This document shows, in pieces, positions 5,160-56,956 of a stretch of 64,000 nt of DNA. The DNA comes from an uncultured Akkermansia sp. (GTDB taxonomy: Bacteria > Verrucomicrobiota > Verrucomicrobiia > Verrucomicrobiales > Akkermansiaceae): the NCBI GenBank assembly GCA_947628035.1, contig CANQYL010000002.1, positions 2,642 to 66,641 on the forward strand, given 5' to 3'. The translations under genes and the position numbers were made by a program. Every line of letters starts with the position of its first letter. The stretch's first letter is position 1. Below the pieces are notes generated by a model. It saw only the letters and a list, made by a program, of their open reading frames with translations. It did no database searches and had not been told where the DNA came from.

Positions 5160-5900
5160 ACATCATGGTGGCACCCCCAGCGACTGCTTCGCTCATGGAC
5201 GATGGACGGGGCACCTGGCGGTGCCTATTTACGATTTGCGAATTGGAAAATTCCGCGCCGTTAGCGCAATCTAGTGGAGCGGATGCGCAGCGGAATTTTG
5301 GATACGAGAGTGCGTGAGGAGAAAGAAAGTGTCCGGAGAGAGTTTGATGGAGGACGCGTTGTCCACATCCGTCCCAATAAAAATTTTCTTTAGGAGCAAT
5401 TCAATCCATTTCCTATGCATTTTCTACGGACGAAGGAAGTAAGTCGGAAGGACGGCAAACCATTGATGATTCAGAAAAGCAGTGAAAACCCCGAGGGCTC
5501 GGAGGGATTGGACAACGCAAGAGCGTTGCCCGCAGGGTGAAAACTGCCGACGGCTGTGAGGCAGGTTAGCCAAAAGCGACAGCTTTTGTCCCAACGGGAT
5601 GAGGAGTTGTGAGGCGACTCCGAAGCAAGCGCCGATGGGGCGGCGCTGAGTCAAAACGGCATGACGTACCAACAAACCTTTCTAACTAATATCCTGCGTT
5701 GCTTAAAAATTCTGCTGCGCATTTGCTTCGCTAAGATTGCGCCGTCGGCGCGGAATTTTTTTACATCGTCCATCGTCCATCGTCCATCGTCCATCGTCCA
5801 TCGTCCATCGTCCATCGTCCATAACCAATGAGTTATGTTGCATCATTCAGCGATAACTGCGTGTTAGGATCGCGTTTTTCTTGGGACGGATGTGGCGTTG
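5160..5900 (+). repeat. Mosaic repeat region (same modules as 3285-3700 plus the CATAAC-N6-GTTATG family)
   Basis: 5194-5245 matches 3398-3450. The core at 5566-5629 matches 3560-3623. 5819-5900 matches 52577-52654 and inverted 18435-18510. Confidence 0.8.
5764..5822 (+). repeat. Perfect heptanucleotide tandem repeat (CATCGTC/CCATCGT), about 8 copies
   Basis: Read directly from the sequence. The equivalent positions at 52553-52578 and 18511-18527 carry only 2-3 degenerate copies. Confidence 0.95.
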
Positions 5901-5902
5901 TC

Positions 5903-6595
5903 CTAGCGCGAAGATTCCTCTTCGTCGTCGCGACCGAGCATGGTGCGCGTGTCCCGGATGGTCTTGCGGGAATATTCATCGCGGGAGTACACGGGAGGGG
6001 GAGGCGTGTTGCTCATGCGGGACTCAACGTACCCACTTTTTGTGTCGCGCGAATAGAAACTTGGCGATGTCGGGAACTCACCACCCATGGTGCTTTTTTC
6101 GCCCTGCATGACGGAACGCTTTCCCACATCGGGGGAAAGGTCATCAGCCCCGTAAACCCCTTTGTCAGCGCCGGCGAAGTCAGGATGCAAATCTTTGTCA
6201 ATTTGGACTCCCATCGCCCCGGGGTACGCCTTTTTTGCATCGAATGCCTGCCCCGAGCCGGAGAATTTCATATCCTGCATCGAACTTTTTGAGGTTCCTG
6301 AAAACTCCTTGGTCATGTAGCTTTTGTCGAGGCGCTTCGAAGCATCGAGATCGGATTGATAGGGACTGACCCGATTTGAAACGGTTTGAGGGACTCCTTG
6401 AGCGTTTTTCTTTTCTGTGAACGAAGAATCAAACTTTTCCTCCATGTACTCAGAGAAATCACGTTCGCCACCCGTGCTCTGCTTCGCCTCATCCACCACA
6501 TTGCCGTACTCATCATAAACCGTGCGCTCACTCTCGCATGCACACAGCAACACCGACAAAAGGAGACTGAACAACTGTTTACTCACTCGTCTCAT
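5903..6595 (-). CDS. Hypothetical lipoprotein
   Basis: Lipobox signal [20 protein letters not shown]. Acidic/Ser-rich mature part. Confidence 0.6.
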
Positions 6596-6674: not shown

Positions 6675-7788
6675 ATGGAAACACCTGCTTCCCCTACCGA
6701 TCTCTCGGCGCTCGACACAGCGGCCATGCGCAGCCGTCTTTCCGAGCTCGGGAGCTATCTTTGACCTCGACCACTTGGAACAAGAAGTAGCCGAGCTGGA
6801 GCGCCGTATGAGCGCACCGGACTTCTGGGACGACCAACAAGCTGCCCGAGAACTCATGGACAAGGTCAACCCACTTAAGCGCCGCCTTGAACAATTTCGT
6901 TCCATTGAGAAATCCCTAGAGGACGTCGAGGTAGCGGTAGAACTCGCGCGCGAGGATCCGGAAATGGCTCAGGAAGCCCAGGCGGAGTACGACACTTGGC
7001 TGAAGCAGCTGGAAGAATTTGAACTCATTACTTTGCTCAACGGTCCGCACGACAACGCCGGCTGCTATATCACCATCCACGCAGGAGCCGGCGGCACAGA
7101 GGCCTGCGACTGGGCGAGCATGCTTTTGCGTATGTACCTGCGCTACTGTGAGCGCCATGGCTTTTCATCTGAAATCATGGAAAGCACCGATGGAGATGAA
7201 GCGGGTCTGCGCTCCGTCACTGTCAAGATAGCAGGTGAATACGCTTATGGTTACCTCAAGAACGAGCGGGGCATCCACCGACTCGTCCGCATGAGTCCTT
7301 TTGACGCCGCAGGCAAGCGCCACACTTCATTTTGTTCGTTGGATGCCACTCCGGATATTTCAGATGACGTGGAAATCGAGGTGAAGGATGCCGATGTCAA
7401 GATGGACACCTACCGCTCCGGCGGCAAGGGCGGTCAAAACGTCAACAAAGTAGAGACGGCTGTGCGCCTCACTCACCTTCCGACGGGCATCATCGTAGCT
7501 TGCCAGACCCAGCGTTCCCAGCTACGCAACCGAGAGGAAGCCATGCGTATGCTCAAGGCGCGCCTCATTCAACTGGAAGAGGACCGCAAACGCGCTGAGG
7601 CCGACCGTCAATATTCGGAGAAGGGAGACATCGCGTGGGGCAATCAGATACGCTCATACGTCTTCCAACCGTACCAAATGGTGAAGGATCTGCGTACCGG
7701 GGTGGAATCCGGTAACATTCAGGACGTGATGGACGGCAACATTGACGCCTATATTGAAGGCATGCTGCGCCACAACGCCAACGCGTGA
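6675..7788 (+). CDS. prfB: Peptide chain release factor 2, expressed through a programmed +1 frameshift (6675-6761 joined to 6763-7788)
   Basis: Frame 0 runs from ATG 6675 ([14 protein letters not shown]...GSYL) to CTT TGA C at 6759-6765. The +1 frame continues [13 protein letters not shown]...SPF...[13 protein letters not shown] (GGQ motif). Confidence 0.93.
6751..6765 (+). promoter_or_regulatory. prfB +1 frameshift site (SD-like GGAGC, then TAT CTT TGA C)
   Basis: GGAGCTATCTTTGAC closely matches the canonical AGGGGGTATCTTTGAC autoregulatory site. Confidence 0.9.
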
Positions 7789-23767: not shown

Positions 23768-24133
23768 TTACCCGCGCCGAGAGAGAGCAAAATCGACGAA
23801 GCTGTCCTGCCCCGACGCTGCCGAAGCTTCCAGATCTTTTACAATCTCATGCAAATTCTTCTGCTTTGTCGCCTCGAACTGCATATACGAATCAAAATGG
23901 TAGAGCGCCAGCTTCATTACAGTTGTGCAATCTATCATTCTCTCGTCCATGATCCGCTCGATCACCTTCTTCATTTTGTCTGTTGCCCTAAAGCATATCA
24001 CTTTTGACATTGTATGTATGTGCTTGTTTTTATTTCTTTTGATGTAGAGGAGTCTTTCCTTCGGTAGAATGCGAATTTTCCCCGTAGTCACGGGTTCCTG
24101 ACCATTCTTTCGACTTTCCTCATGATGCATCAT
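23768..24133 (-). CDS. Small hypothetical protein, possibly a ribbon-helix-helix DNA-binding or excisionase-like partner of the integrase
   Basis: SKVICFRATDKMKKVIERIMDE has a beta-strand plus helix pattern. The gene is low in GC and divergent from the integrase. An alternative start at 24010 would give 81 aa. Confidence 0.4.
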   Translation of the reverse strand: MMHHEESRKNGQEPVTTGKIRILPKERLLYIKRNKNKHIHTMSKVICFRATDKMKKVIERIMDERMIDCTTVMKLALYHFDSYMQFEATKQKNLHEIVKDLEASAASGQDSFVDFALSRRG

Positions 24134-24157: not shown

Positions 24158-24176
24158 AACGGTTTGCTAATCCGTT
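24158..24176. promoter_or_regulatory. Palindromic operator-like site AACGG-N9-CCGTT
   Basis: AACGGTTTGCTAATCCGTT in the AT-rich divergent intergenic region. A related site lies at 24324-24341. Confidence 0.35.
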
Positions 24177-24317
24177 ATACATTTATATTTATTGATATTA
24201 CTACACTTATGAATTACGTTCTCTCATTTCTCTTCTTTCTCGTTCTGACTGTCTATCATCCCCATTCATTGACTATAAGTTTTCTCGTGATTTTTGTTGA
24301 ATTGTGATTTTCTTTTC

Positions 24318-24346
24318 TTGACTACGGCTTAGCAATCCGTTTTATT
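24318..24346 (+). promoter_or_regulatory. Putative integrase promoter (TTGACT-N17-TTTATT) with an ACGG-N9-CCGT palindrome filling the spacer
   Basis: TTGACT at 24318-24323, and ACGGCTTAGCAATCCGT at 24324-24340. Confidence 0.35.
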
Positions 24347-24367: not shown

Positions 24368-25411
24368 ATGTCGCACAACAAATATCAGAAAAACGAAGAT
24401 TGGTTCCTCCGTTATCACCTGACGAAGAGGGATGCCGAACGCTTGGGCAGAGAACTGCTGGAGAGATTTGCGGAGGAAAAAGAAGGACTCAGCTTGCTCA
24501 ATGCCTGCCGGGAAGCCATAGCTCTTGGTTATGAGGCGTACAAGAGGATGCGAGAAAGCGTCACCTTCGAGGAAGCGGTTCGAGTCTCACTCAAGGAACG
24601 TGCTGACAGACGAAAACGGACCACCCAGGAATTGCGCGGCATCTGCAAACGCCTCATGAGTGGTGCAAACCCTCTGCGTTCTCAAACCCTACGTGAGTTG
24701 GATGCAGACACCTGCCGAACAGCCCTCGCCGAACGTTTCCGTACACCTCGCCAATTCACCAAGGCTCGACGAGTGCTGCATTCTATCTTCTCTTGCGGGA
24801 TGCGTCACGGTTGGTGCAGCGTCAACCCCGTCCAAGCTATACAGACACCCACCTTGCAAGAAGCTCGTATCAACGCCGTGCCTTGGGACGACCTCGTCTG
24901 TCTTTTGCGCACCTCCACTCAGTCGAAGCACCGCGCGTGTATGCCCGCCCTTGGACTTATGCTCTGGGCCGGTATCCGTCCCGCTGAACTGACCCGACTT
25001 TCCTGGCAGGATATTGACTGGGAAGAGAACATCATCTCTCTGAAAGCTCAGCACAGCAAGACCGGCGGTAGCCGTCATATCAGTCTCTATCCACCACTAC
25101 GTTCATGGCTTCTCACCTTCCGCTCTACTCCCCACACTCATGGAGCAATCTGTCCGCCCAACTGGCAGCGCCGTTGGAAAGCCCTGCGCCGCGCTGCCGG
25201 TTTTCATCACTGGCAGCAGGACATTCTGCGTCACACCTTCGCCAGCTATCACCTGAAACATCAACACGATCTCGCGCGCTTGCAAGAAGAAATGGGACAC
25301 CGTTCCCTGCGCCTCTTACGCACCCGCTACTTGAGTATGCAGGGCGTTACCTCTCAACATGCCGCGCTCTTCTGGTCACCAGACCTCCCCTTCCTCACCG
25401 ACAAGCGGTAA
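24368..25411 (+). CDS. Tyrosine-type site-specific recombinase / integrase
   Basis: Catalytic pattern R (WAGIRPAEL), K (SKTGGSRHI), HxxR (ILRHTFAS), H (MGHRS) and Y (TRYL). Confidence 0.88.
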   Translation: MSHNKYQKNEDWFLRYHLTKRDAERLGRELLERFAEEKEGLSLLNACREAIALGYEAYKRMRESVTFEEAVRVSLKERADRRKRTTQELRGICKRLMSGANPLRSQTLRELDADTCRTALAERFRTPRQFTKARRVLHSIFSCGMRHGWCSVNPVQAIQTPTLQEARINAVPWDDLVCLLRTSTQSKHRACMPALGLMLWAGIRPAELTRLSWQDIDWEENIISLKAQHSKTGGSRHISLYPPLRSWLLTFRSTPHTHGAICPPNWQRRWKALRRAAGFHHWQQDILRHTFASYHLKHQHDLARLQEEMGHRSLRLLRTRYLSMQGVTSQHAALFWSPDLPFLTDKR

Positions 25412-37504: not shown

Positions 37505-37533
37505 TTGACAGGGCAGGGAGACTGTGGTACATA
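37505..37533 (+). promoter_or_regulatory. Promoter (TTGACA-N17-TACATA with TGg extended -10)
   Basis: TTGACA at 37505-37510, 7 nt after the end of MITE copy 4. Confidence 0.5.
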
Positions 37534-37562
37534 GGGAAAGTGAGACGCAAGGCGTTTTGATT

Positions 37563-38441
37563 ATGTATTACTATCTGGACGACAGCAGGAAACCGCAAGG
37601 TCCGTTTTCCAAAGAACAACTCGTGCGCATGGTCGAGAGCGGAGAACTCCTTCCCAGCACCCTTATCGCCAAGAGGGGCTCTGAAGAGTGGTTACCCATC
37701 AGCAAGGTGATCTCAGAGTGCGGAGAACTGCCTCCTGTACCGGAGGAAAAGGAAGCACCGAAGGAAGCAGCGGGGGCGTGCCCCTACTGTTCGGCAGAAG
37801 TGTATTTGCGCAACGATGGGAGTTTGCCGATACGTTGTGCTAAGTGCAACCGCTCGCTGAGACCGAGCGACGGAAGTATTATCGCGACGCTGGCTCACAG
37901 TTGGACCCATGTTTTTACTCTGAAAGGGCGCGCCACTCGGCAGGAATTTTGGTTGTTTGTTCTATCATGCTTTGTGGCAACAGCGGTCATTGGATCGCTG
38001 TTTGGAGAACCCGTAGAGGAAATCCCCCTGATTTTCTACCTACTTGGCTTGTCCCTGTGCGTGCGGCGTCTGCACGACACCGGTAGCAGCGGCTACCCTA
38101 TTCTCTGGATGCTGATAACTTGTATTCTCTCCATCGTATTCGGCACGCTCGGAGCAGCCTCCATCATTTTAACGATCATCGAAGGATTCAAGGAAGCCAG
38201 CCCCGCTCAGAATATGCCCGCGCTTCTCGGCGCGACAACTTTCGGATGGACAGTGATCGTCTCCTGCATCCTGCTTCTTGTGTCCACGATCCTTTACCTG
38301 TATGTGTTGATACGCGCCGGGTTTATCGATTCAGAAAGGGGGCCGAATCGGTACGGGCCTTCCGCAAAATACCCACTCCCTGACAAGGCAAAACAAGAAG
38401 CTGCGGGAACAGGAGAGAAGCTGCATCGTGATGGCGAGTGA
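37563..38441 (+). CDS. GYF_2 domain / zinc-ribbon / DUF805 membrane protein
   Basis: N-terminal YYYLDDSRKPQGPFSKEQL...EWLPISKV (GYF-like), CPYC...CAKC ribbon, and DUF805 signature GRATRQEFW...VRRLHDTG. Confidence 0.75.
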   Translation: MYYYLDDSRKPQGPFSKEQLVRMVESGELLPSTLIAKRGSEEWLPISKVISECGELPPVPEEKEAPKEAAGACPYCSAEVYLRNDGSLPIRCAKCNRSLRPSDGSIIATLAHSWTHVFTLKGRATRQEFWLFVLSCFVATAVIGSLFGEPVEEIPLIFYLLGLSLCVRRLHDTGSSGYPILWMLITCILSIVFGTLGAASIILTIIEGFKEASPAQNMPALLGATTFGWTVIVSCILLLVSTILYLYVLIRAGFIDSERGPNRYGPSAKYPLPDKAKQEAAGTGEKLHRDGE

Positions 38442-39539: not shown

Positions 39540-40295
39540 TTATTTGCTATTTCGTCCATCTGTAAGCAAGCGAGAATTGCTTTGTTGCAACACGCGCAGT
39601 TGAGAGCGCGCCATATCGTTGAGGCATTGCAAACGCTCTGTTTGTGATCTGCCTTGCTCAATTAAAATGGCGTTATAGCTTTCCATATTGGCAATCACGA
39701 GCAGCTGCTCGATAGTGGCGTAATCCCGAATATTACCTTTGAGTGTTGGATTTTCTTTGCGCCACTGGGCGGCAGTCTTTCCGAACAGGGCAACGTTCAA
39801 GAGATCGGCTTCATCGGCATAAACGTATTTGAGTTGTTCGTCCGTAAGCGTCGGGACGATATTCTCCTTGATTGCGTCGGTGTGTATGCGGTAGTTTACC
39901 TTTGCAAGTTCACGCTTTGCCGACCATTCAAGCGCTTGTTGCTCTCGCGCTTTGAGCCGCTGAAACTCCGTGACTAAATACAACTTAAATTCCGGACTTA
40001 ACCAACTTGCAAACTCAAAGGCTATATCTCGATGCGCGAACGTTCCTCCATTGTTCCCCGACTTGGAAACAATACCGACCGCGTTGGTGGCTTCTATCCA
40101 TTTTTGCGGAGAGAGATAAAAACTGTGTCTGCCTGCCGCGTTCTCAAAGGTCTCGAATTCGTGCCCTTTGAAATCTGGGTTATGTAACGTCTTCCACAGC
40201 CCAAGATAAGATATGACGTCTTTGTTGCGCATCCATGCGGCAATTGGAACTTTCGGTTCGGCCGGATTGGCATAGCGCGCCAAACGACAACGCAC
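39540..40295 (-). pseudogene. KilA-N domain protein gene, 5'-truncated at the junction with repeat B
   Basis: Conserved WMRNKDVISYLGLWKTLHNPDFK...GGTFAHRDIAFEFASWLSPEFKLYL. The first ~25-30 residues of family members are missing, and the first 6 codons of the ORF (GTG start) lie inside the miaA-derived repeat. Confidence 0.7.
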
Positions 40296-40701: not shown

Positions 40702-42786
40702 TTATTTCCCCTGCTCCGTGAGTTTTTGGTACAGCGTGAACAGGTGAGTCACGCGGTCGGAATCATCAGCGAACTTCCTCCCGTAGGCGGCATCAACGGC
40801 AGAATCCAAATCTCGATGGGCTTTGCGCAACTCCGGAGGCATGAGCAGTGGGTCGTAAAGGTCCGCTAATGTACTTTCGGGGTACAAAACTCGGGCATCC
40901 AACACGGCTTGCGCGCAAGACTCTATCCTTTCGCGCTGCTCGGTTGTCGGTTCCGGCCAGGAGAAGTTGTTGTAAACGATGTTTGCGGAGTACCGATAGT
41001 CGCTCTTAAGTCTCCCCGCGACCGTCCGCATCCATGCCATGTGAATGGCGGAGGAAAGGACGCCGAAGTGGTAAAGTGTGGCATCGGGAACGATCTTGAG
41101 GAGATTGCTACATATCGTTGTTTCATTCAGAAAAGCCATTGGAATGTACTGACGATTCTCGGACGAAACTTCCGGAATGGCGACATAACGAACAGGATTA
41201 TTCGTTTCACGGAAGAGGGTCGGAGCATCAGCCAACTTACGGCGTCCAGGGTCAGTCGCGTTTAATCGGTCTTGTCTGCATGCTTCTACTCGTTCCATGA
41301 CGGCGGGCATTGTGCGAAGTTCTGCGGGGCTGGCGCCAGCAAGCCATAAGCACCACCGTTTTTTTCCATTAATCAATTCATCCGCCCCCATGAAGGATTT
41401 GATGAACTTTGCGGCTCGTGGTTCTCGCGCCATGAAAGCATCGTACTCGTCTGCCTCAATAATGAGGTGCCCTCCGTCAGCCGGGCGATTTCCCGTACTC
41501 ATTTTCGGTACGTCGCAGAGTGGCAAGGTACGGCTTTCGATAAACAGGTAAGCTGCATCCAGAAGATAGCTGTTAATCTGATGCGCCATGTGGGCGAGCC
41601 CCTCTTCATCAAAAATGGTGCATCCTCTTGCCTTTCCTGCGCTAAAACCTATGATAACGCAGTGTACCGCTGCCGTGTCTCTTACTTCATTTGCCCACTT
41701 GAACGTGCGATAGGCGATGTCGATGTGAACGCCGTACTCACTCGTAAGATGCTTCCAAAGGTTAGCGGCTTGTTCGCCCTGAGTGATGGAGTTGGTGGAG
41801 ACAAAAGCGGCGCGCGTGTTGGAATCATGCTGCAAGATTTGAGCCGCCTTATCAAACCATGCGCAGACAAAATCCAGCTTACCCCATGCGCGCGCTTTGC
41901 CAAGAAGCTGCTGCATATTGGCTTTCTGTTCCTTCGTTTGAAGGGAGTAGCCTATGAACGGCGGATTGCCGATGATGTAGTCCACGTGGCGGTTGGGGAT
42001 GTTATCCGTCCAGTCCATTTCCAGTGCGTTGCCTTCGCGGATATTTTCGTAACTTTGCAGCGGGAGAAAGTCTGCTAATTGTTGGTCGGTGAACTCTTGC
42101 GTTTCTCTCCACATTTGAGCGTCGGCTATCCAGAGGGCGGCCTTGGCAACCGATACGGCGAAGTCGTTAATCTCAATCCCGTAGAATTGCTGTATGGACA
42201 CTTTGACGCGGGAGAAGTCGCCGCCGAAAGTGGCTTGCCCGTTGGAAAGATAGCGAACGGCTTCATTCTCCAGCCGGCGAAGGGAGATGAATGTTTCGGT
42301 GAGGAAGTTGCCGGAGCCGCAGGCAGGGTCGAGGAAAGTGAGCGAAGCGAGCTTGTCGCGGAAGGCTTCCAGCTTGCGGACGAGGGAGGCTCCCCTATTT
42401 TCTTCCCTGATGCTGTGCAGTTCCGCCGTGAGGGTGTTCAGGAAGAGAGGGTCGATCACCTTGTGGATATTCTCCACGCTGGTATAGTGCATGCCACCGC
42501 TGCGGCGCGTGGCGGGGTTAAGCGTGCTTTCGAAGAGACCGCCGAAGATCGTGGGCGAGATACCGCGCCAATCAAAGTGCGCCGCGTCTCTGATGAGATT
42601 GCAAAGAGCTTCATCCAACGGAGGGATAAAATCCGCGTCACTCTCTGCGAAAAGTCCACCATTCACGAAGGGGAAGGCTCGCAGTTCTTCATCGAAGGGA
42701 TCGCGCTGCTGCGGCTGCATATTGAGCGCACGGAAGAGCTTCATGATACGCTCGCGCACAGCGGAGGGTTTCACCACTGCGGACAT
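40702..42786 (-). CDS. MmeI-family Type IIL restriction-modification enzyme, C-terminal fragment (helical spacer, gamma-class N6-adenine methyltransferase, TRD)
   Basis: It starts MSAVVKPSAV and carries AFPFVNGGLF, SPTIFGGLFES, FLDPACGSGNFL (motif I), IGNPPFIGY (motif IV) and a conserved C-terminal YDPLLMPPELRKAH. It is colinear with MmeI residues ~240-919. Confidence 0.85.
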   Translation of the reverse strand: MSAVVKPSAVRERIMKLFRALNMQPQQRDPFDEELRAFPFVNGGLFAESDADFIPPLDEALCNLIRDAAHFDWRGISPTIFGGLFESTLNPATRRSGGMHYTSVENIHKVIDPLFLNTLTAELHSIREENRGASLVRKLEAFRDKLASLTFLDPACGSGNFLTETFISLRRLENEAVRYLSNGQATFGGDFSRVKVSIQQFYGIEINDFAVSVAKAALWIADAQMWRETQEFTDQQLADFLPLQSYENIREGNALEMDWTDNIPNRHVDYIIGNPPFIGYSLQTKEQKANMQQLLGKARAWGKLDFVCAWFDKAAQILQHDSNTRAAFVSTNSITQGEQAANLWKHLTSEYGVHIDIAYRTFKWANEVRDTAAVHCVIIGFSAGKARGCTIFDEEGLAHMAHQINSYLLDAAYLFIESRTLPLCDVPKMSTGNRPADGGHLIIEADEYDAFMAREPRAAKFIKSFMGADELINGKKRWCLWLAGASPAELRTMPAVMERVEACRQDRLNATDPGRRKLADAPTLFRETNNPVRYVAIPEVSSENRQYIPMAFLNETTICSNLLKIVPDATLYHFGVLSSAIHMAWMRTVAGRLKSDYRYSANIVYNNFSWPEPTTEQRERIESCAQAVLDARVLYPESTLADLYDPLLMPPELRKAHRDLDSAVDAAYGRKFADDSDRVTHLFTLYQKLTEQGK

Positions 42787-42796
42787 GTAATCCGGA
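42776..42796 (-). repeat. Inverted repeat, left copy (IR-L), at the 5' end of the MmeI-like C-fragment
   Basis: The reverse complement reads TCCGGATTACATGTCCGCAGT, matching 18/21 positions of 43787-43807, and contains the ATG of the C-fragment. Confidence 0.85.
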
Positions 42797-42874
42797 GCGT
42801 TATAGGGCTAATTCCTGCTCCGTATTATGGACTACACCAACTTTTCAGTGACCTCCTTTGGGTTGGTTGATCCG

Positions 42875-42908
42875 CCCGACGGAGCTGGCTCTCCGTCGGG
42901 TTCTTTTT
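42875..42908 (+). terminator. Rho-independent terminator inside the invertible segment, with no upstream plus-strand gene in the present orientation
   Basis: CCCGACGGAG-CTGGCT-CTCCGTCGGG followed by TTCTTTTT. Confidence 0.7.
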
Positions 42909-43076
42909 GCCTGGAAGGTTGATATAATATTGCTTCGGTTGTGTATTTTCACCGTGGGGAGGCAGCATCCTTGTAAATCACTAGTATACCTCCTGCGGTA
43001 GAAATCTTGCAGGCTGTTTTTAGCGAGAGTGTTTCTTCTTTCTTTTTGCAGACGATTGTGTTATGTTCTCCGGTGT

Positions 43077-43811
43077 ATGGATGCAACTACCAGTCAGGCA
43101 ACAGATGCGGCGAAAAAGAAGGGTACCGTGAAGGCTTTTTCAGAGAAATGGAGGGAGGCAACCGGAGGTGAGAAACAAGAGGCACAGAGTTTCTGGAGAG
43201 ATTTGTTGCAAGAGGTGCTTGGCGTGCGCGGCTATGATATCAGTCGTACCGTTTTCTTTGAAAAGCCTGTACAAGTGGGAGACTCCATACGCTACATTGA
43301 TGCTTACCTGCCTGACACTCGTGTGCTCATTGAGCAAAAAGGACGCAAAGTGGACTTAAATGCGCCGCAAATGCAGTCCGGCGGGGATATGCTGACGCCC
43401 TACGAGCAAGCTAAACGTTACTCGGACAATCTGCCCGTGGATCAACACGCACGCTGGATCGTGACCTGCAACTTCAGCGAGATCCACATTCACGATATGA
43501 ATGCTCCGCAGCCCGCTGTGGCAGCGAGCTGCATCACGTTGGAAGAACTGCCCGATCAGTGGCACCGACTGCTTTTCCTTGTGGACGCCGCCAACGCACG
43601 CATTGAGAAAGAGCGCGAAATGTCGATGAAAGCAGGCGTCCTCGTCTCTGAAATCTACAACGCTCTCATGGAGAAAGCCGGGAGAGTGACGGATGCAGTA
43701 GTCTTGCAGCAACTCAATCGTTTCTGTGTGCGGCTCGTGTTTTGTCTCTATGCAGAGGATGCAGGTCTGTTTGACAAGGACCAATTTCTGGATTACATAT
43801 CCGCTGTTTAG
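43077..43811 (+). CDS. MmeI-family Type IIL enzyme, N-terminal fragment (PD-ExK nuclease domain and start of the helical domain)
   Basis: FSEKWREATGGEKQEAQSFWRDLL, nuclease motif IDAYLPDTRVLIEQKG (D-x12-EXK) and RLVFCLYAEDAGLF. It ends ...FLDYISAV followed by TAG immediately after IR-R. Confidence 0.85.
   Translation: MDATTSQATDAAKKKGTVKAFSEKWREATGGEKQEAQSFWRDLLQEVLGVRGYDISRTVFFEKPVQVGDSIRYIDAYLPDTRVLIEQKGRKVDLNAPQMQSGGDMLTPYEQAKRYSDNLPVDQHARWIVTCNFSEIHIHDMNAPQPAVAASCITLEELPDQWHRLLFLVDAANARIEKEREMSMKAGVLVSEIYNALMEKAGRVTDAVVLQQLNRFCVRLVFCLYAEDAGLFDKDQFLDYISAV
43787..43807 (+). repeat. Inverted repeat, right copy (IR-R), at the 3' end of the MmeI-like N-fragment
   Basis: TCTGGATTACATATCCGCTGT. 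It has the same reading frame (DYISAV) as IR-L (DYMSAV). Confidence 0.85.
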
Positions 43812-43939: not shown

Positions 43940-44027
43940 CGGAGAGAGAGGGATTCGAACCCTCGGTGACACCTCTGCCACGCTCGATTTCGAGTCGAGT
44001 GCCTTAGACCAACTCAGCCATCTCTCC
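43940..44027 (-). tRNA. tRNA-Ser (anticodon CGA)
   Basis: Manual fold: acceptor GGAGAGA/TCTCTCC, anticodon stem CTCGA/TCGAG with loop CTCGAAA, long variable arm, T-arm GGTTCGAATCC and discriminator G. No CCA is encoded. Confidence 0.9.
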
Positions 44028-45910: not shown

Positions 45911-48900
45911 GTGCAAATAGAATTGATCACGGCCCGCTATGCTTCTGCAGCCCAAATGAAGGATGGGTTGAGCCCTCTTCGAGAAATACACCTCACCGCC
46001 GACGCTGATCGCGACAATCTGAACGTGATCGTGAATTACGAGCCTCCCTGCATCGAGGAACAACGATTTTGGGTATCACACCTGAATGCGCAGGAATCCC
46101 GCACGATCAAGCCGACGGTGCCCAAACTTTCATCGCCGCCTCCTAGCGACACACAACCCGTGAAGGGAACCATCCATGTGAGTGTCACGACAGAGGAAGG
46201 AGAAACTCTTGTTGAGCAAGAACAAGCGCTACGTTGGCTGTCGGATTCGCTCCTCCCGGATCTCACCGAGTACCCTGTATGGCTCGCGCGCACGGTTTCT
46301 GCGCAGGCGGAGGAGACGGACCCCATCGTAAGCCGCATCACGGGAATCACCTCGACATCCGGCGTTGAGGAACGCGTCCGTGCCGTATGGGGTGCGCTCC
46401 GTCACTTCACGCGAGATTACAAAATTGTCCCGCCGAAAGACGAGCAAGCGGCAGGAGTTGGCTGTGCGGTTCGCTGCTCCCTGCGGGAGTTGAAGGAACA
46501 GGGCTATCGTGGCAGCCTTGATGCCGCTCTTCTCTTAATCTCGTGTCTCACCCGCCTCCACACCAACGCCTCTCTCATCATCACCGGCGGACAAGCGCTC
46601 GTCGGCATTTTTCCGGGAGCCATGCAGGGCTTCGACCATGCGGTACAGACGGACCGGCGAGGCGTCATGAAGGCAGCGCGGACAGGAGAGTTCACCGTCC
46701 TGCGTGCGGCGGGACTCTACGCACCGCTCAGCTACGAAAACGCCGCTGAAGAGGGAGCAAAAATCCTTGCGGAGGAACAGGACGATTTTCTCGCCGTGGA
46801 CGTGAGTTGTCTGCTCCCCGAGCAGGTGACGGCAGCGTCTGATGACGACACGGAGGGAACCTCGGATCTGATCACGGCGCCGGAATCTTCGGACTCACGC
46901 ATTGACCGCTGGCAGCGGAAATTGCTCGATCTCTCTCTGCGCAACAACCTGCTGAATACGAAATGGGCGGGCAAGAACAGTCTCCCACTCATCGTGCCGG
47001 ACGTAGCCGCTCTGGAAGACCGACTGGCCGACGGGGATATTCTTCGCTTCAAGGCACAGTCGGGCAATGAGCCCGCCGACCCGGACGTCCAACAACTCGC
47101 CGCCTCACTCCTCCTCAAGAAACAACTGGTCGCCGCCATGGAGGAGACCGACCTGCTTCGCCGTCTCGGCAGCCTCTATCTGTCCGCTCGTCGCGAACTG
47201 GAGGAAAGCGGCTCCAACACCCTCTACATCGCCTGCGGCTTCCTCAAGTGGATTCCCAAGGGAGCTCCGGCGGATCGAGTGTTGCGCGCCCCTCTCATCC
47301 TCATCCCCGTGCAGCTCTCGCGCGCATCGGTGAAGGATGGCTACGCGCTGCACGGCACGGACGATGAACCGCGCTTCAACGAGACCCTCCTGGAGCTGCT
47401 GCGCGTGGAGTTTTCAATACGGATCAACGAGCTGCAGGACGGGGAACTCCCGCACGACGAGAGCGGGTTGGACGTAGCGCGCATCCTGCAAACCGTGCGG
47501 GACAGTATCAGCAGCATGGTCGGTTGGGAAGTGGAAGAGCAGTGTCTGCTCGGTCTCTTTTCCTTCGCTAAATTCCTCATGTGGCAGGACCTCATGGCTC
47601 GGCGGGAGCAACTGTTGAAGAACCGGGTCGTCCAACAACTCGCCGCGAAAAATCGCGGTCAATTTCCGGAACAGGTCGGCTTCCCGCGTCCGGATACCCT
47701 CGATCGCGATGAAGACCCCCACACGATCTACACTCCCCTGCCCTCCGACTCCTCGCAGTTGGCAGCCGTGCTGGCGGCGGAGTACGGGAAGAGCTTCGTG
47801 CTGGAGGGACCTCCCGGCACGGGCAAAAGTCAGACGATTGCCAACATGATCGCCCACTGTCTGGGGAGCGGCAAGACGGTTCTCTTTGTGGCAGAAAAAG
47901 CCGTTGCTCTGGAGGTGGTGCACAAGCGGCTCACGCGCATCGGGCTCGGCGATTTCTGTCTGCAACTGCACTCGAACAAGACGCGCCTCGCGGAGGTCAT
48001 CAGGCAGTTTCGTCAGGCGATGGACGGACTCAGCGCGCGCGAGCAGAAGGAAGCGGATCGTACGTGGCAGGAGAGCGTGGACTCCATGCTGAGCGCACGA
48101 AATGCGGTCAACGAGCTGCCGCAGGTCATGCACCGCAAATACCCGGACGGATTGAGTCTGTACGAAGACATCTGCTGCATCGCTCCCGGGGAGAAACTTC
48201 CGTCCGTGAAGCCCACTCAGGAAGAACCCCTCACCCTGCCGCATGAAGAGAGACTGCGGCTGCTCAACCTCGCCCACGAGCTGGCAGCCCACGCCAACCT
48301 GTTGCAGGGCGACCTGCGTGTGGTGGCGCGCGATATGCTGCGCGCGGACGATGACCCCGAGTGGGAGAACAAGCTCGTGGACGCCTTGCAGCAGGCGCTC
48401 CCCCTCATCAAGGTCCAGGTGGACATCCTCCGCGAGTGGGCCGACCTCGCGAGTTGCTCCGACCAACTTGCCGAGCAACGCATCGTCCTCTTCACTTCCT
48501 TGGAGATGGCTGCTGAGCATCCGGGCAACGATTGGTCCGGTATGTTGCCACGCTACGCCGCGCATTCTGCGGAAGTCATCCGTACCCTCGCGGAGCACGC
48601 CGACCATTTCCGTCGGCTGCGCGAGAGCCTCAGCGTGACCTACCCAGACAGCGCCGTAATGGATGCCGGACTCGACGAGCAGCGCGCGACCTGTCGCAAT
48701 GCCCAAAATCGCCTCTTCCCCATGCGTTGGTGGAGCGAACGCTCCTCGCGCAGCTATCTGCGCTCCATCGGTGCCGGAAGTGGAAAAATCAACTGCATGA
48801 ACGACCTGGACGCCCTCGTTTCCATGCGAGATGAACAAAGGGCTCTGGACGAAGCGGACACGGCTCTGCTCCCGTCCTTCATCAAGGACAAAGGCACCGA

Positions 48901-51583
48901 ATTTTCCCGACAGGATGCAGACGCGGCACAGCGGCTCATCACCCAACTCAACAGCACCACGAGCGAAGGAGAGAGCCTGGCCATCCGACTCATCGACGGT
49001 GCCGACGAGCTCGTCCGGAGCGCCGCAGCCCAACGCTGCATCGTCGCTTGGAAGAGCAACCACATCGCGCTGACCGCTTGCGCGTCACAACTCACGGAGC
49101 TGCTGGAGTCCCCTTGCGGTCTGCTTGAGCGTTGTGCGGCGGGCGAAGCACAGGAATGGCTGCAACGGTTGCTCGATACGCGTGACCGGTGGCGCGACGT
49201 CACCCTCTGGAACGCAAAAAGACGGGAGGCCAAGGAGTCGGGACTGGGAGACGTGGCAAAGCTGCTAACGGATGGAGAGTGCACGGCGGAGCGTGTCGAG
49301 GACCTGGTGAAGGTGAACCTCTCCCGGCTCAAGATGCAGGCGGCTGCTCGCAGTGAGGGAATCCTCTACCATTTCTCACCCGCACTGCACGAACAAAAAA
49401 TTACCGATTACAGCGAGCGCGATTCCCAACTCCGCGCCCTCACCGGGGAGCGCATCCGCTCCATCCTCGCACAACGGGCAGCGAGATCCATCGACTATGA
49501 GAAAGAGGCCATCATCCTCCAGCGCGAAATCACCAAGAAGCGCGGCTATATGCCCCTGCGCAAACTGCTCCACGAAGTTCCCCATGTAGCTTCGTTGCTC
49601 AAGCCCTGTTTCCTGATGAGCCCGCTCTCCATCGCGCAGTATCTCACCCCGGAAGCGGAGCCCTTTGATGTGGTGATCTTCGACGAGGCCTCGCAGATCC
49701 CTGTATGGGACGCCGTTGGTGCCATCGCTCGCGGAACAAGCGTCATCATCACCGGCGACTCACGTCAAATGCCGCCAACGAGTTTCTTCGGACGTTCGCG
49801 TGACGACGAAGACGAGGAGGACGTCGACGAGCCCGATCTGGAGAGCATATTGGATGAGTGCATGGCCTGCGGGGTGCCGAAGATGGATCTCACCTGGCAT
49901 TATCGAAGCAAGTCGGAATCCCTTATTTCCTTCTCCAACGCGCACTACTACGAAGGCAAAATGACCACCTTCCCCGCACCCTCCCTGCGCGACACCGCAC
50001 TCTGTCTCCACGCCGTCAAGGGCACCTACTTGCCCGGGGCGAAGAACCGGACCAATCCGGAGGAAGCGCGAGCCGTCGTCAAGCACATCTGCGACACCCT
50101 GCTCACCCCGGGCTTCCGCTACACAGAAGCCACCAGCATCGGCGTCGTTACCTTCAACGCCCAGCAGCAGAAGCTCATTCTCGATCTGCTGGACGATGAG
50201 CGCGCCAAGCATCCCTCCCTGGAGCCCTTCTTCGCAGAGAACAACCCCGAGGCCGTTTTCGTGAAAAACCTCGAAAACGTGCAGGGCGACGAGCGAGGTG
50301 TTATCTACTTCTCCACCACCTACGGACGCGATGCCGACGGACACATGTCCATGAACTTCGGGCCCCTCAACCTCATCGGCGGCGAGAGGCGTCTGAACGT
50401 CGCCGTCACCCGTGCGCGTTACGCCATGCATATCTTTACATCCATGCAACCGGAAGACATCGACCTGACGCGAACTCGAGCACGAGGGGCGGCGGACCTG
50501 CGCGATTTCCTGCAGTACGCTCGCAGCAACTCCCAAAATCAAGACACGACTGCCGAGACGGCTGCCGGAGTCGATCCCCTGGCTGCTCACATAGCCTCCC
50601 GTCTGCAAAAACTCGGCTGGCGGTGTCGCACGGGGCTGGGCGCTTCCGACTACCGCGTGGATATTGCCGTCGAGGACCCGAAGCGTTCAAACTGCGTCCT
50701 GGCAGGCATCACTCTGGACGGCACGTGCTACGCCGCGGCACACACCGCGCGGGATCGCGACATCGTGCGACCTGACACCATGCGCCTGCTCGGCTGGCGA
50801 ATGCTCAACGTGTGGGCGATCGATTGGTGGCGCAACCCCGAACAGACGCTCAAGAACATCGATTCCAAGTTGCACGAATTCGAGCAACAGGGACCGCCGA
50901 AAGCAGAGGAACTCCCCTCCCTCCTGCCCGGCAAGAACGATGACGCCCCCTCCGACGAAGAAACATCGGCGACCCCAGACACGGACCAAGGAAAACAAGA
51001 GCCCGCGCGCGTCGTCGAGCCGGGTCCGGATCCCGCGCTGGCAAAGGTAAAGCCGGTGAAATCGAGTGCATTCAATATGCAACCCAGGAACCTGCTCCCC
51101 CTCATTGAGAAGATCACGGCGGCAGAAGCGCCCATCACCATGCAGCATCTCGCGGCCCGCCTCATGGAAATCGCTCCGCCGGACATCACCAAACGTTCCC
51201 GCGCCTTCGCCGGTGAGCTCGCTTCCTTCGAGGTGCAGGTTGACCAAACGGCGCGCTCACTTGTAGCCGACCGAAAGCTCGCCGTGAAGCGCATCGATAG
51301 TCCCATCCTTCAGTATCCTCAAACCATCTTTTTCCTGCCGGGAGAATTCGAAGTTCTTCCCCGCGCCTTGGGTTCACGTACCCTGGAGAACATCCCGGTG
51401 GATGAGTTGCTCGAAATTGCCCGTATCGTCTGGCAACAGCTCGCCTGCCTCCCCGGCACCGATGCTCACCTGCGCGGTATCTCAACGTTCCTGCGCCTTC
51501 CACGTCTCACCAAAGAAACCCGCGAGCAGCTCTCACTCGTCATCAAGGCCGGGGCCAGGGTAAACGCATTTGAGGAAAGTTAA
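45911..51583 (+). CDS. Giant multidomain protein: unknown N-terminal region, DUF4011-like, Upf1/DNA2-like SF1 helicase, Vsr/DUF559-type (REase_MTES_1575-like) nuclease module, DUF3320-like tail
   Basis: RWQRKLLDLSLRNNLLN (aa ~333), Walker A GPPGTGKS (nt 47807, aa 633), DEASQ (nt 49682, aa 1258), GDSRQMPP, WHYRSKSESLISFSN, QGDERGVIYFS and VTRAR (aa ~1499). GWRCRTGLGASDYRVDIAVED...WAIDWW lies at nt ~50600-50860. The start may be GTG 45911 or ATG 45956. Confidence 0.85.
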   Translation: MQIELITARYASAAQMKDGLSPLREIHLTADADRDNLNVIVNYEPPCIEEQRFWVSHLNAQESRTIKPTVPKLSSPPPSDTQPVKGTIHVSVTTEEGETLVEQEQALRWLSDSLLPDLTEYPVWLARTVSAQAEETDPIVSRITGITSTSGVEERVRAVWGALRHFTRDYKIVPPKDEQAAGVGCAVRCSLRELKEQGYRGSLDAALLLISCLTRLHTNASLIITGGQALVGIFPGAMQGFDHAVQTDRRGVMKAARTGEFTVLRAAGLYAPLSYENAAEEGAKILAEEQDDFLAVDVSCLLPEQVTAASDDDTEGTSDLITAPESSDSRIDRWQRKLLDLSLRNNLLNTKWAGKNSLPLIVPDVAALEDRLADGDILRFKAQSGNEPADPDVQQLAASLLLKKQLVAAMEETDLLRRLGSLYLSARRELEESGSNTLYIACGFLKWIPKGAPADRVLRAPLILIPVQLSRASVKDGYALHGTDDEPRFNETLLELLRVEFSIRINELQDGELPHDESGLDVARILQTVRDSISSMVGWEVEEQCLLGLFSFAKFLMWQDLMARREQLLKNRVVQQLAAKNRGQFPEQVGFPRPDTLDRDEDPHTIYTPLPSDSSQLAAVLAAEYGKSFVLEGPPGTGKSQTIANMIAHCLGSGKTVLFVAEKAVALEVVHKRLTRIGLGDFCLQLHSNKTRLAEVIRQFRQAMDGLSAREQKEADRTWQESVDSMLSARNAVNELPQVMHRKYPDGLSLYEDICCIAPGEKLPSVKPTQEEPLTLPHEERLRLLNLAHELAAHANLLQGDLRVVARDMLRADDDPEWENKLVDALQQALPLIKVQVDILREWADLASCSDQLAEQRIVLFTSLEMAAEHPGNDWSGMLPRYAAHSAEVIRTLAEHADHFRRLRESLSVTYPDSAVMDAGLDEQRATCRNAQNRLFPMRWWSERSSRSYLRSIGAGSGKINCMNDLDALVSMRDEQRALDEADTALLPSFIKDKGTEFSRQDADAAQRLITQLNSTTSEGESLAIRLIDGADELVRSAAAQRCIVAWKSNHIALTACASQLTELLESPCGLLERCAAGEAQEWLQRLLDTRDRWRDVTLWNAKRREAKESGLGDVAKLLTDGECTAERVEDLVKVNLSRLKMQAAARSEGILYHFSPALHEQKITDYSERDSQLRALTGERIRSILAQRAARSIDYEKEAIILQREITKKRGYMPLRKLLHEVPHVASLLKPCFLMSPLSIAQYLTPEAEPFDVVIFDEASQIPVWDAVGAIARGTSVIITGDSRQMPPTSFFGRSRDDEDEEDVDEPDLESILDECMACGVPKMDLTWHYRSKSESLISFSNAHYYEGKMTTFPAPSLRDTALCLHAVKGTYLPGAKNRTNPEEARAVVKHICDTLLTPGFRYTEATSIGVVTFNAQQQKLILDLLDDERAKHPSLEPFFAENNPEAVFVKNLENVQGDERGVIYFSTTYGRDADGHMSMNFGPLNLIGGERRLNVAVTRARYAMHIFTSMQPEDIDLTRTRARGAADLRDFLQYARSNSQNQDTTAETAAGVDPLAAHIASRLQKLGWRCRTGLGASDYRVDIAVEDPKRSNCVLAGITLDGTCYAAAHTARDRDIVRPDTMRLLGWRMLNVWAIDWWRNPEQTLKNIDSKLHEFEQQGPPKAEELPSLLPGKNDDAPSDEETSATPDTDQGKQEPARVVEPGPDPALAKVKPVKSSAFNMQPRNLLPLIEKITAAEAPITMQHLAARLMEIAPPDITKRSRAFAGELASFEVQVDQTARSLVADRKLAVKRIDSPILQYPQTIFFLPGEFEVLPRALGSRTLENIPVDELLEIARIVWQQLACLPGTDAHLRGISTFLRLPRLTKETREQLSLVIKAGARVNAFEES

Positions 51584-52732: not shown

Positions 52733-53350
52733 ATGAATGCAAATCCTATTCCGGCTTCTGATTTTGTAGCCAATGTCAAATACGGCTTCAAGCATTTCTT
52801 GACTTTCAGAGGACGTTCCACTCGTCCACAATTCTGGTGGTATTTCCTGGCATTATGTATCATCGATACTGTTTTCAAGACGGTAGGCAATCTGTGTGTC
52901 GGCACGATCGATATCGACGTGGAAGAATTGAACACCACTACTGACATATTACAGACTTTATGGTCAGAGCTGCCGCTCGGCTTCATCATTATAACTATCG
53001 TTCAACTCGTCATCGGTATCATTTTTTCCTTCTCACTACTTGCTGCAACGGTTCGTCGTTTACACGATGCCGGTCATTCAGCCTCCTTAGCCTACATCAA
53101 CATGATTTTGTACATCATCATGTACGCCGGCTTCTTCGCAATGTTACTCAATATGGACAAGTTCCTTCCTGTGATCGCTTCCTATCCTCAGCAAGGGCAA
53201 GAATCGTCTGCTATCGCGTTCTTCGCAGGTTGTTGCGCCGTTCTTGCCCTCATCGGGTCGGTCGCACTGATCCTATCGATCATCGTGCTGGTGTTCTTAC
53301 TCAAGCCGAGTGAACCCCGTGATAACAAATACGGACCCTGCATCAATTGA
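52733..53350 (+). CDS. DUF805 family inner-membrane protein
   Basis: FRGRSTRPQFWWYFL and ATVRRLHDAGHS signatures; 4-5 transmembrane helices. Confidence 0.8.
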   Translation: MNANPIPASDFVANVKYGFKHFLTFRGRSTRPQFWWYFLALCIIDTVFKTVGNLCVGTIDIDVEELNTTTDILQTLWSELPLGFIIITIVQLVIGIIFSFSLLAATVRRLHDAGHSASLAYINMILYIIMYAGFFAMLLNMDKFLPVIASYPQQGQESSAIAFFAGCCAVLALIGSVALILSIIVLVFLLKPSEPRDNKYGPCIN

Positions 53351-56281: not shown

Positions 56282-56956
56282 ATGGAAGACTCTTCCGGCA
56301 ATCCTTCTCCATCGCGCCAAGAACGGTGGGCCTCTTTGTATAGAAAGCTCTGCGATTATGCCGTGAACGGCTTTTTCCGGGATTCCGACTCCTTCGAGAT
56401 GAACGTGCATTTCCAAGGACGCATGGGAATGAGCAAGTACTGGCTCACCGTCCTCTTAGCTGCCCTCATCGGATGCGTTGCAAAAATCATCGTTTCCTTC
56501 CTGGCCTATGCTCTCTCCCTTCTTTTTGGCTTGTTGAACGTTTTGCTCGGGAGTTTTTGCGCAAACGTCGTGGTTGCTCTTGTCAGCATCCTCTTGATGC
56601 TGCTCGAGTTCCTTACCGGCATCTTCTGTCTCTGGCTCTTCCTTGTCTGCATCAGCGCCACGGTTCGCCGCCTTCGGGACGCCGGATATAGCCCTTGGCT
56701 CATCCTCTTAGGTCTCACCGGCATCGGCGTTATTGTCGTGCTCATTCTGTGCTGTCTGGAAAGCGCTCAAGACGCGGACGACACTGAGCAAGAGCCCACC
56801 CCCTCGCAACCTGCCGAAACGACCCAACCTGCCGAGCTTCCTCCCGTTCCGAGTCCCGCTCCGGAGCCGGTGTCCCTCTGTCCCCTCTGTCATGGCGAAG
56901 GGAAAAACGCAGCCGGTTTCACCTGCCCTCAATGTGGCGGCTCAGGCAAAGCCTGA
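56282..56956 (+). CDS. DUF805-like membrane protein with a C-terminal Pro-rich linker and a CxxC-x-CxxC zinc-finger
   Basis: FQGRMGMSKYW and ATVRRLRDAGYS match the DUF805 pattern. The tail CPLCHGEGKNAAGFTCPQCGGSGK resembles a DnaJ-type zinc finger. Confidence 0.7.
   Translation: MEDSSGNPSPSRQERWASLYRKLCDYAVNGFFRDSDSFEMNVHFQGRMGMSKYWLTVLLAALIGCVAKIIVSFLAYALSLLFGLLNVLLGSFCANVVVALVSILLMLLEFLTGIFCLWLFLVCISATVRRLRDAGYSPWLILLGLTGIGVIVVLILCCLESAQDADDTEQEPTPSQPAETTQPAELPPVPSPAPEPVSLCPLCHGEGKNAAGFTCPQCGGSGKA

Follow-up and report, generated by a model that had tools for sequence, protein, structure and literature searches.

The 64,000-nt stretch of DNA analyzed here (called the window in the following; all coordinates are window positions) originates from an uncultured Akkermansia sp. 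(GCA_947628035.1, CANQYL010000002.1) and carries a restriction-modification (R-M) gene of the MmeI family (Type IIL), which lies there in two pieces on opposite strands. We estimate the probability at roughly 75% that this is a phase-variable gene of Akkermansia under the control of simple DNA inversion, with the flipping enzyme acting in trans. The upstream region forms a segment of about 1 kb together with 238 codons from the start of the gene, which specify the nuclease domain and one half of the helical spacer. This segment is bounded by two short inverted sites of the form CGGATT-ACA-TATCCG; one lies upstream of the gene, and the other encodes D-Y-I/M-S-A within a variable loop of the spacer. 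Conservative site-specific recombination between the two sites would invert the segment. In the ON orientation, the whole gene would give the full enzyme with nuclease, methylase and target recognition domain (TRD), and restriction would be ON; in the OFF orientation, represented by the window, the nuclease part would be severed, the holoenzyme not made and restriction OFF. The sites fall within the inverton repeat family of Akkermansia, and a trans-acting tyrosine recombinase would flip the segment, so that the gene would be reversibly switched within a clone.

The locus consists of the following features:
43077-43811, + strand: N-terminal fragment ORF (open reading frame), 244 aa from ATG, with the PD-(D/E)XK nuclease domain and the first half of the helical spacer
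40702-42786, - strand: C-terminal fragment ORF, 694 aa, with the second half of the helical spacer, gamma-class N6-adenine methyltransferase, TRD and C-terminal domain
42776-42796, no strand: left inverted repeat (IR-L), putative recombination site on the methylase side; core 42780-42794 = CGGACATGTAATCCG, read on the - strand as CGGATT-ACA-TGTCCG
43787-43807, no strand: right inverted repeat (IR-R), putative outer recombination site; core 43789-43803 = TGGATT-ACA-TATCCG
42797-43786, no strand: predicted invertible segment; its length is 990 bp here and, counted from repeat to repeat, 931 bp in lineage B (see below)
42797-43076, + strand: non-coding part of this segment, 280 bp, presumed promoter and 5′-untranslated region (UTR) of the nuclease-first gene

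The nuclease ORF ends with ...DQFLDYISAV and a stop just past IR-R, and the 694-aa ORF begins with MSAVVKPSAV. Coordinates, strands, termini and the length of the larger ORF agree with the first-pass annotation of this DNA, which had described two such fragments; the smaller one has 244 aa from its ATG and not 245. In Pfam searches, the nuclease fragment matched MmeI_N (2.8e-31) and positions 1-33 only of the MmeI_hel profile, while the other fragment matched MmeI_Mtase (3e-83), MmeI_TRD (4e-75), MmeI_C (9e-29) and MmeI_hel positions 41-75. Both fragments are divergent and on opposite strands, and the MmeI domain order is broken in the window state. The two 21-nt repeat arms lie 990 nt apart and match at 18/21 positions (86% complementary), with a longest exact run in common of 9 nt and no similarity past the arms; the repeat finder and direct comparison agreed on this and on the positions given for the repeat before. 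Inverted repeats as good as 18/21 are not unusual, since several others occur among 6 kb. Therefore, the repeat is significant because of its placement at both ORF break points and not by its quality alone: the probability of at least 18/21 matches is 8.6e-9 per register and ~3e-6 with a slack of +/-10 nt at each ORF break.

Flipping 42797-43786 in silico resulted in a single ORF on the minus strand, as had been claimed, with a length of 934 aa from its ATG rather than ~936. Pfam profiles occurred in this ORF in the order MmeI_N, MmeI_hel, MmeI_Mtase, MmeI_TRD and MmeI_C, and MmeI_hel was covered continuously at 1-75 of 75 positions across the join, compared to 1-33 and 41-75 in the separate fragments; the unbroken match to the five MmeI profiles foreseen in the first-pass annotation was thus obtained. 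In a phmmer search of the PDB, residues 20-930 of the flipped protein aligned with residues 14-903 of MmeI (5HR4; E 2.5e-183), with a 2-residue gap alone near the join. The same five-domain order in one polypeptide is also present in a natural fused relative (P0127). Readable motifs are IDAYLPDTRVLIEQK (D...ExK) in the nuclease part, which we take to be the PD-(D/E)XK motif, as well as DPACGSGNFL and GNPPF in the methyltransferase, presumably motifs I and IV of gamma-class N6-methyladenine (m6A) enzymes, all assigned from knowledge of MmeI. Type IIL enzymes of the MmeI family cleave ~20/18 nt from an asymmetric site, and the host is protected by methylation of one strand. Judged by domain order, motifs and full-length similarity to 5HR4, the gene is an MmeI-family Type IIL R-M gene. 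It resembles MmeI, the prototype of this type, in the five-domain order and in the full-length alignment of the fused ORF, whereas the gene of MmeI is single and uninterrupted and that of Akkermansia has a predicted invertible 5′ part. For the window lineage, the predicted fused junction is TTTCTGGATTACATGTCCGCAGTGGTG (longer form ...CAATTTCTGGATTACATGTCCGCAGTGGTGAAACC) and the reciprocal junction is ...TATAACGCTCCGGATTACATATCCGCTGTTTAGC. The observation that both repeats lie in the same codon frame, which had been put forward in favor of a switch, provides no independent evidence because recombination within the repeat gives this automatically.

Related contigs, drawn from samples and pipelines that are independent of one another (SPAdes assemblies of ENA, Logan, and an NCBI metagenome-assembled genome (MAG)), fell into three lineages:
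Lineage A (window, L091-L096): miaA and a KilA-N gene on one side, tRNA-Ser and gpmI on the other; repeat 18/21; all 7 contigs split
Lineage B (L001-L005, L097-L099): pyrF on one side, ATP synthase on the other; repeat 19/19; 2 fused, ~7 split, 1 mixed
Lineage C (L006-L011, uncultured Akkermansia sp. MAG GCA_947626545.1): other genes, with the same tRNA-Ser alongside; 1 mismatch in the repeat; all split

The exact 694-aa and 244-aa proteins occur in the public protein collection. In its 90% cluster, the 694-aa protein is joined by the 934-aa fused protein P0127, by split-type proteins of 680, 694, 711 and 761 aa, and by N-terminal fragments of 277 aa; the 761-aa proteins (P0001 etc.) belong to the split state, their ORFs continuing across the repeat into the upstream region in antisense. 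The gene for P0127 is located on a 23.9-kb contig (L001) from a rabbit-gut sample, between pyrF-thyA-folA and a stretch with an outer-membrane protein gene and the ATP synthase operon. Its outer site (5756-5774) lies 227 nt upstream of the ATG at 6001, and its inner site (6710-6728) lies in codons 237-243. With the same neighbors, a split pair of 711 aa and 277 aa was found in other samples (L002-L005). BLAST comparison of the fused contig with the split contig L002 gave three colinear blocks, of which the middle one (969 bp, segment plus both repeats) is inverted, with 19-nt overlaps. Both sites read TTACGGATTACATATCCGC, a repeat of 19 nt without mismatch, and the reciprocal swap of the inner flanks falls exactly within it; IR-L of the window is the counterpart of this flank-exchange site. 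Furthermore, two split contigs, L098 (Logan DRR848705, 1431 nt) and L099, match the fused contig at 100% in every block and differ from it in orientation alone, from which it follows that the flip is recent relative to point mutation. A further contig (L004; 3.6x coverage), carrying 100% the L002 allele, has a fused-type junction (C-side flank, repeat, nuclease end) at its start and a split-type junction internally, which hints at both states within one sample. Thus, both orientations of one locus exist in nature with the exchange lying within the repeat, and this holds for lineage B only.

In a GTDB genome scan with P0127, the only close relative was a split-state MAG of an uncultured Akkermansia sp., while the remaining 79 loci were intact genes with 43-57% identity from many phyla. 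A JGI metagenome scan for the C-side junction GGATTACATRTCCGCWGTGGTGA gave 0 matches.

Comparison of orthologous loci had been proposed in the first-pass annotation both for the two orientations and for conservation of the repeat, and both were found: the orientations in lineage B (fused L001 versus split L002, L098 and L099) and the repeat in lineages A, B and C at three sites. Repeat and layout are kept in these lineages at ~90% amino-acid identity and in three chromosomal contexts. For the analysis of selection, dN/dS and dS between lineages were estimated according to Nei-Gojobori. The nuclease part showed a dN/dS of ~0.05 with dS up to 1.3, and the methylase-TRD part a dN/dS of 0.08-0.2 with dS of 0.1-0.5. 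By these estimates, both halves are under strong purifying selection and have stayed functional over a long divergence, with the split state usually being the one assembled; the low dN/dS in both halves fits a gene that is regularly re-formed and not a pseudogene. The proposal of a switch rather than random decay therefore agrees with the occurrence of both orientations at 100% identity, the conservation of the repeat in three lineages and the purifying selection.

Two further observations concern the history of the gene. The dS of the invertible nuclease part is ~3x that of the rest (1.29 vs 0.43 for A vs B, 0.49 vs 0.11 for B vs C), pointing to different histories of the two parts through recombination or separate exchange of the segment. 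In addition, the TRD block differs between P0122 (L002, split) and P0127 (L001, fused), with ...NNPTRFIVVPRHSSENRLYIPFGLHGKEIIVSDAVTIIP... in the former vs ...NNPVRYVAIPEVSSENRQYIPMAFLNETTICSNLLKLVP... in the latter; this may be a mosaic exchange that has possibly changed the recognition sequence.

Outside these lineages, 71 more distant MmeI loci showed no excess of inverted repeats between upstream and intragenic regions (49 inverted vs 57 direct 16-mer matches). In the nearest intact homologues without inverton (L100, L101; 66% identical), the site is absent and the junction peptide is different. The lack of an excess of repeats in the distant loci and of the site in the 66%-identical homologues indicates that the switch is a feature of this Akkermansia clade and not of the MmeI family. 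One of these homologues (L101, MAG GCA_947631435.1) has a perfect 14-nt inverted match, CAATCCAGCGGGCA, at 3612 and 4366, which connects the 5′ UTR with the nuclease-domain codons HARWIV and could be due to chance or RNA pairing. Two MmeI paralogues (P0002, P0007) occur in the same MAG, and an additional, partial copy of the N-terminal part follows directly downstream (L101 6950-7768).

The repeat core is the near-palindrome CGGATT-ACA-TATCCG. For Akkermansia invertons, the motif CGGATT..AATCCG is attributed to Jiang et al. 2019 in a 2026 mBio article on the Akkermansia capsule inverton (PMC13343947), and Akkermansia genomes are reportedly unusually rich in invertons of this type (PMC10028968, PMC11892184). 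Scored against CGGATT-NNN-AATCCG with its 12 specified positions, the lineage B site reached 11/12 and the window arms 10/12 each; here, the motif is second-hand from the quotation in PMC13343947 and its 3-nt spacing was deduced from four recombinase-proximal pairs. A search of the window for near-matches of the motif revealed, beyond the MmeI arms, one other pair only, located upstream of a tyrosine recombinase gene:
24159-24340, no strand: inverton-like element with arms ACGGTTT-GCT-AATCCGT (24159-24175) and ACGGCTT-AGC-AATCCGT (24324-24340) and inverted centers
24368-25411, + strand: tyrosine recombinase, candidate trans-acting invertase, 347 aa, starting 28 bp past the element and 17.4 kb from the MmeI locus

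Between the arms of the element are 148 AT-rich bp, and the -35-like hexamer CTTGAC abuts the gene-proximal arm; by its sequence, the element looks like a self-regulating invertible promoter, and the same layout was seen in three homologues (L108, L111 and L115). The recombinase matched Pfam Phage_integrase (1.9e-15) and had only weak scores with Xer-like NCBIfam models; its active-site residues are readable in AGIRPAEL, LRHTFAS, GHRS and TRYL. Its family is large and diversified, and those members that carry names are from Akkermansia. The motif pair was present upstream of 4/4 recombinases examined, namely this one and three relatives: P0139, which is 68% identical and encoded at the syntenic pheT-fabH site, P0156 (57%) and P0171 (55%). 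In the relatives, the pairs bracket 150-165 bp right at the gene start, again with CTTGAC abutting the proximal arm. P0139 is encoded in samples ERZ27249386 and ERZ27249684, both of which also contain the lineage C MmeI locus. Pfam analysis of 50 larger ORFs spaced across the 64-kb window detected no other recombinase, and no recombinase domain was found among the called genes at the lineage B and C loci. The statement that no recombinase gene is adjacent is correct for the immediate neighborhood of the locus, yet a tyrosine recombinase preceded by the same motif lies 17.4 kb away in the window. Because MmeI sites and recombinase-upstream sites share one motif family, the flipping enzyme is most likely a trans-acting tyrosine recombinase of this family.

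Regarding the surroundings of this gene, a small ORF (23768-24133, - strand; short form from ~24009) is divergent from the recombinase and begins MSKVICFRATDKMKKVIERI...; ORFs of this kind, with 68-104 aa, are conserved upstream of homologous recombinases (L102-L107, L108, L111, L115), and by eye the N-terminus has the appearance of what we take to be a ribbon-helix-helix DNA-binding protein. The Logan contig L117 begins 2 nt before the recombinase-upstream site.

The promoter of the R-M gene probably travels with the segment. Within the latter, one further feature has to be considered:
42874-42909, + strand (sense strand of the nuclease ORF): terminator-like hairpin, 11-bp stem with 8 GC pairs, plus T run

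As this hairpin stands between the outer site and the ATG, the promoter should lie within ~42910-43076. In the alignment of the three lineages, the last ~60 nt 5′ of the nuclease ATG are conserved. The hairpin itself is an insertion in the segment of the window lineage only, and lineages B and C are without it.

Several points weigh against reversible inversion by a recombinase of this family. In its right half-site, the MmeI repeat has TATCCG, while the consensus is AATCCG. The element upstream of the recombinase was in one orientation throughout (window and 6 other contigs, and likewise L111-L114), and the link between recombinase and MmeI locus, being built on motif sharing, is an association and not a demonstration. 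The fused contig L001 and the split contig L002 come from different strains, with flanks 97.3-98.7% (97-99%) identical, and the 100%-identical fused and split pairs stem from different samples. No promoter was confidently found. The split state predominates in the assemblies by ~25 to 2-3, and the window lineage was seen in the split state only (7 contigs), with one altered half-site in each repeat arm. Such an excess of split copies points to restriction being off for the most part in the gut.

As to what is made in the split orientation, it is about an even bet that this state is fully OFF, and overall we lean toward full OFF or weak methylase-only expression. An alternative is that there are two functional states, the fused one with restriction plus methylation and a split one in which the nuclease is uncoupled while methylase-TRD continues to be produced, starting at the ATG in IR-L or at a conserved Met 14 codons downstream; this must be called doubtful. 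All split contigs have the C-terminal fragment as an unbroken ORF, which is just as expected, however, of a frequently flipping pure ON/OFF switch. In the window lineage, the repeat has acquired an ATG through an A-to-G change right at the junction, but lineages B and C have ATA at this place, so that the start codon described before is real for the window and specific to its lineage. The Met in ...RIMKLFRALN is common to all three inverton lineages, whereas the 66%-identical homologues without inverton have Leu (RILQLF) and MmeI, which reads INTLF, has Thr at this position. Further support comes from DnmA of B. subtilis, an MmeI homologue without nuclease motif that is active as a stand-alone methyltransferase (PMC9973331). 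On the other hand, the upstream region, which probably holds the promoter, flips away together with the nuclease part, and a single weak promoter-like match (9/12) faces the C-terminal fragment. The extensions of its ORF upstream of the repeat (0, 17 and 67 codons) are not conserved. The designed two-state arrangement suggested in the first-pass annotation thus stands as far as an inversion switch in this gene family is concerned, and its methylase-only state is a possibility that the unconserved upstream extensions do not favor. Two candidates were discarded in this context: a conserved alternative N-terminus of the C-terminal fragment was ruled out by the same unconserved extensions, and the 9/12 promoter match was too weak to be relied upon.

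A more specific form, in which a global inverton recombinase of the host toggles between the restriction-proficient holoenzyme and a nuclease-free methylase-only form, seems rather unlikely to us. If true, the genome would stay protected while restriction is suspended, allowing a safe return to ON, and the locus would represent domain-level phase variation of a single-chain R-M enzyme. That the two fragments associate into an active enzyme in the split state is improbable.

Another explanation concerns the window copy alone, which would be a switch frozen in the split state after half-site mutations did away with efficient recombination, persisting as two genes. We regard this as conceivable but not probable. 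The lineage was found split in 7/7 contigs and in the variant proteins P0135 and P0136; its arms match at 18/21 with one changed half-site each, compared to 19/19 in lineage B, the sole lineage seen in both states; and both the hairpin in the segment and the junction ATG were gained by this lineage alone. The altered half-sites, TGGATT by the nuclease and TGTCCG by the methylase, are both on the coding side and the non-coding half-sites keep the consensus, so after a flip of the window copy the in-gene site would bear both changes. Flipping of the window copy may therefore be inefficient or locked. On the other hand, the central ACA/TGT and 10/12 motif positions are intact, and the nuclease fragment has a dN/dS of 0.05 vs lineages B and C, a value averaged over the whole divergence. 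Lineage C, with a 1-mismatch repeat, is also split only, and instead of locking, the bias may reflect selection for OFF in the gut.

It is very improbable that the inversions are recurrent inactivating accidents, caused by sporadic RecA-dependent or illegitimate recombination at a chance short inverted repeat and with no dedicated recombinase involved. The missing recombinase next to the locus and the excess of split over fused copies would be in line with this, but 19 nt (9 exact nt in the window lineage) are very short for homologous recombination. The repeat is conserved while surrounding synonymous sites are saturated (dS of 1.3 in the N-terminal part, A vs B or C), it fits a known genus-specific inverton motif and the sites fronting a recombinase family, and the 71 distant MmeI loci lack such an excess of repeats. 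An assembly artefact can practically be dismissed: short inverted repeats are able to mislead assemblers and the end of contig L004 is hairpin-like, but the split head-to-head arrangement recurs in >25 contigs of near-identical Akkermansia from rabbit-gut samples, from independent samples and pipelines and in three lineages, bordered by unique sequence to the left and right.

For Type I hsdS, inversion is a classical source of variation in R-M systems. Milman et al. 2023 (PMC9881135) also described programmed inversions in Type II/IIG genes (Cj0031 homologues, BREX PglX and DISARM DrmMI), and according to a 2025 preprint (PMC11741434), putative 'inverton-like' rearrangements affect methyltransferase genes of gut bacteria in thousands of cases. 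The novelty originally assumed for the MmeI switch therefore has to be restricted: inversions in Type II R-M and methyltransferase genes are known, and what we did not find in the open-access literature on inversion or phase variation of MmeI or Type IIG enzymes is a report of the present layout or of an invertible 5′ part in MmeI. The systems in these two publications and the MmeI locus have in common that inversion of a single-polypeptide R-M or methyltransferase gene leads to population heterogeneity. In the published systems, TRDs or C-terminal parts are exchanged with silent cassettes via long repeats, usually with an adjacent recombinase and resulting in new specificity, whereas the MmeI locus has two 19-21-nt sites, no cassette, inversion of the N-terminal nuclease end and a predicted ON/OFF outcome (or R+M+ vs R-M?, with R for restriction and M for methylation). 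As to the hallmarks of a shufflon, no silent cassette was found, since the 19-21-nt site occurs just twice per locus and neither the N-terminal nor the TRD segment of MmeI is present a second time, nor was there a recombinase beside the target (17.4 kb off in the window, none at the lineage B and C loci). Cj0031 of Campylobacter jejuni, a phase-variable Type IIG enzyme (Anjum et al. 2016, as cited in PMC9881135), also shows ON/OFF phase variation of a fused R-M enzyme, by slippage in a polyG tract instead of inversion.

With the promoter invertons of Akkermansia, which include inverton group 138 (PMC11892184) and the cps1 capsule switch, the MmeI locus shares the genus, the half-sites CGGATT / ATCCG round a 3-nt center, the ON/OFF logic, and the presence of two short repeats usually without an adjacent invertase. 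Promoter invertons are ~150-200 bp in size, intergenic and contain the promoter only, whereas the MmeI segment comprises ~1 kb including 238 codons of its target, has one site in the coding sequence, which must encode a tolerated peptide, and has TATCCG instead of AATCCG as right half. In the fused state, one MmeI repeat is inside the coding sequence and the other outside any coding sequence, upstream of the gene. For this reason, the locus belongs to the 'partial intergenic invertons' as defined with PhaVa (Chanin et al. 2024, PMC10028968), and the earlier designation as an intragenic switch was right on the precise inversion between short repeats in a gene but not on the class. Loci of this class likewise have one repeat in and one outside the coding sequence, and flipping truncates or recodes the gene; however, in that publication they mostly figure as shufflon-like domain swaps, whereas at the MmeI locus there is no cassette and the N-terminal domain is detached together with the upstream region. 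Distinctive features are thus the MmeI-family Type IIL target, the detachment of nuclease domain and upstream region in place of a TRD swap, the absence of a cassette, and sites of the host's general inverton family without a local recombinase.

A switch of this type would add a defense gene to the inverton targets of Akkermansia, which so far are mainly promoters of surface structures such as the capsule. It would also illustrate that a short recombinase site can sit in a protein-coding loop, making a whole catalytic domain plus upstream region detachable and re-attachable. For the Akkermansia invertase, which has no name as yet, the tyrosine recombinase family preceded by the same sites is a concrete candidate that can be tested. 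Restriction that is OFF most of the time in the gut, if the ratio in the assemblies is a guide, would bear on phage sensitivity, DNA uptake and practical genetics of Akkermansia. Annotation pipelines will label such loci as two unrelated genes or a pseudogene.

Outside IR-R, a tRNA gene was found:
43940-44027, - strand: tRNA-Ser(CGA), 132 bp outside IR-R

The same tRNA-Ser adjoins the lineage C element (L007 4466-4553; 88 nt, 96.6% identical) and is probably the edge of a small island bearing the R-M gene. Directly downstream of the methylase fragment, in the window lineage only, is a gene with a KilA-N domain (39540-40295, - strand); this gene on one side and tRNA-Ser on the other suggest that the R-M gene is on a small island. 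Beyond tRNA-Ser and gpmI, ~2 kb from the R-M locus, an 1890-aa protein with DUF4011, AAA_11/AAA_12 helicase and MTES_1575 nuclease domains is encoded at 45911-51583 (+ strand), and a very large ORF likewise adjoins the lineage C element (L006, L007). Paralogues of a DUF805 membrane protein are dispersed in the window (37524-38441, 52733-53350, 56282-56956); the orthologue of 37524-38441 carries GYF_2 plus DUF805 (L093), and similar GYF_2+DUF805 pairs occur in L108.

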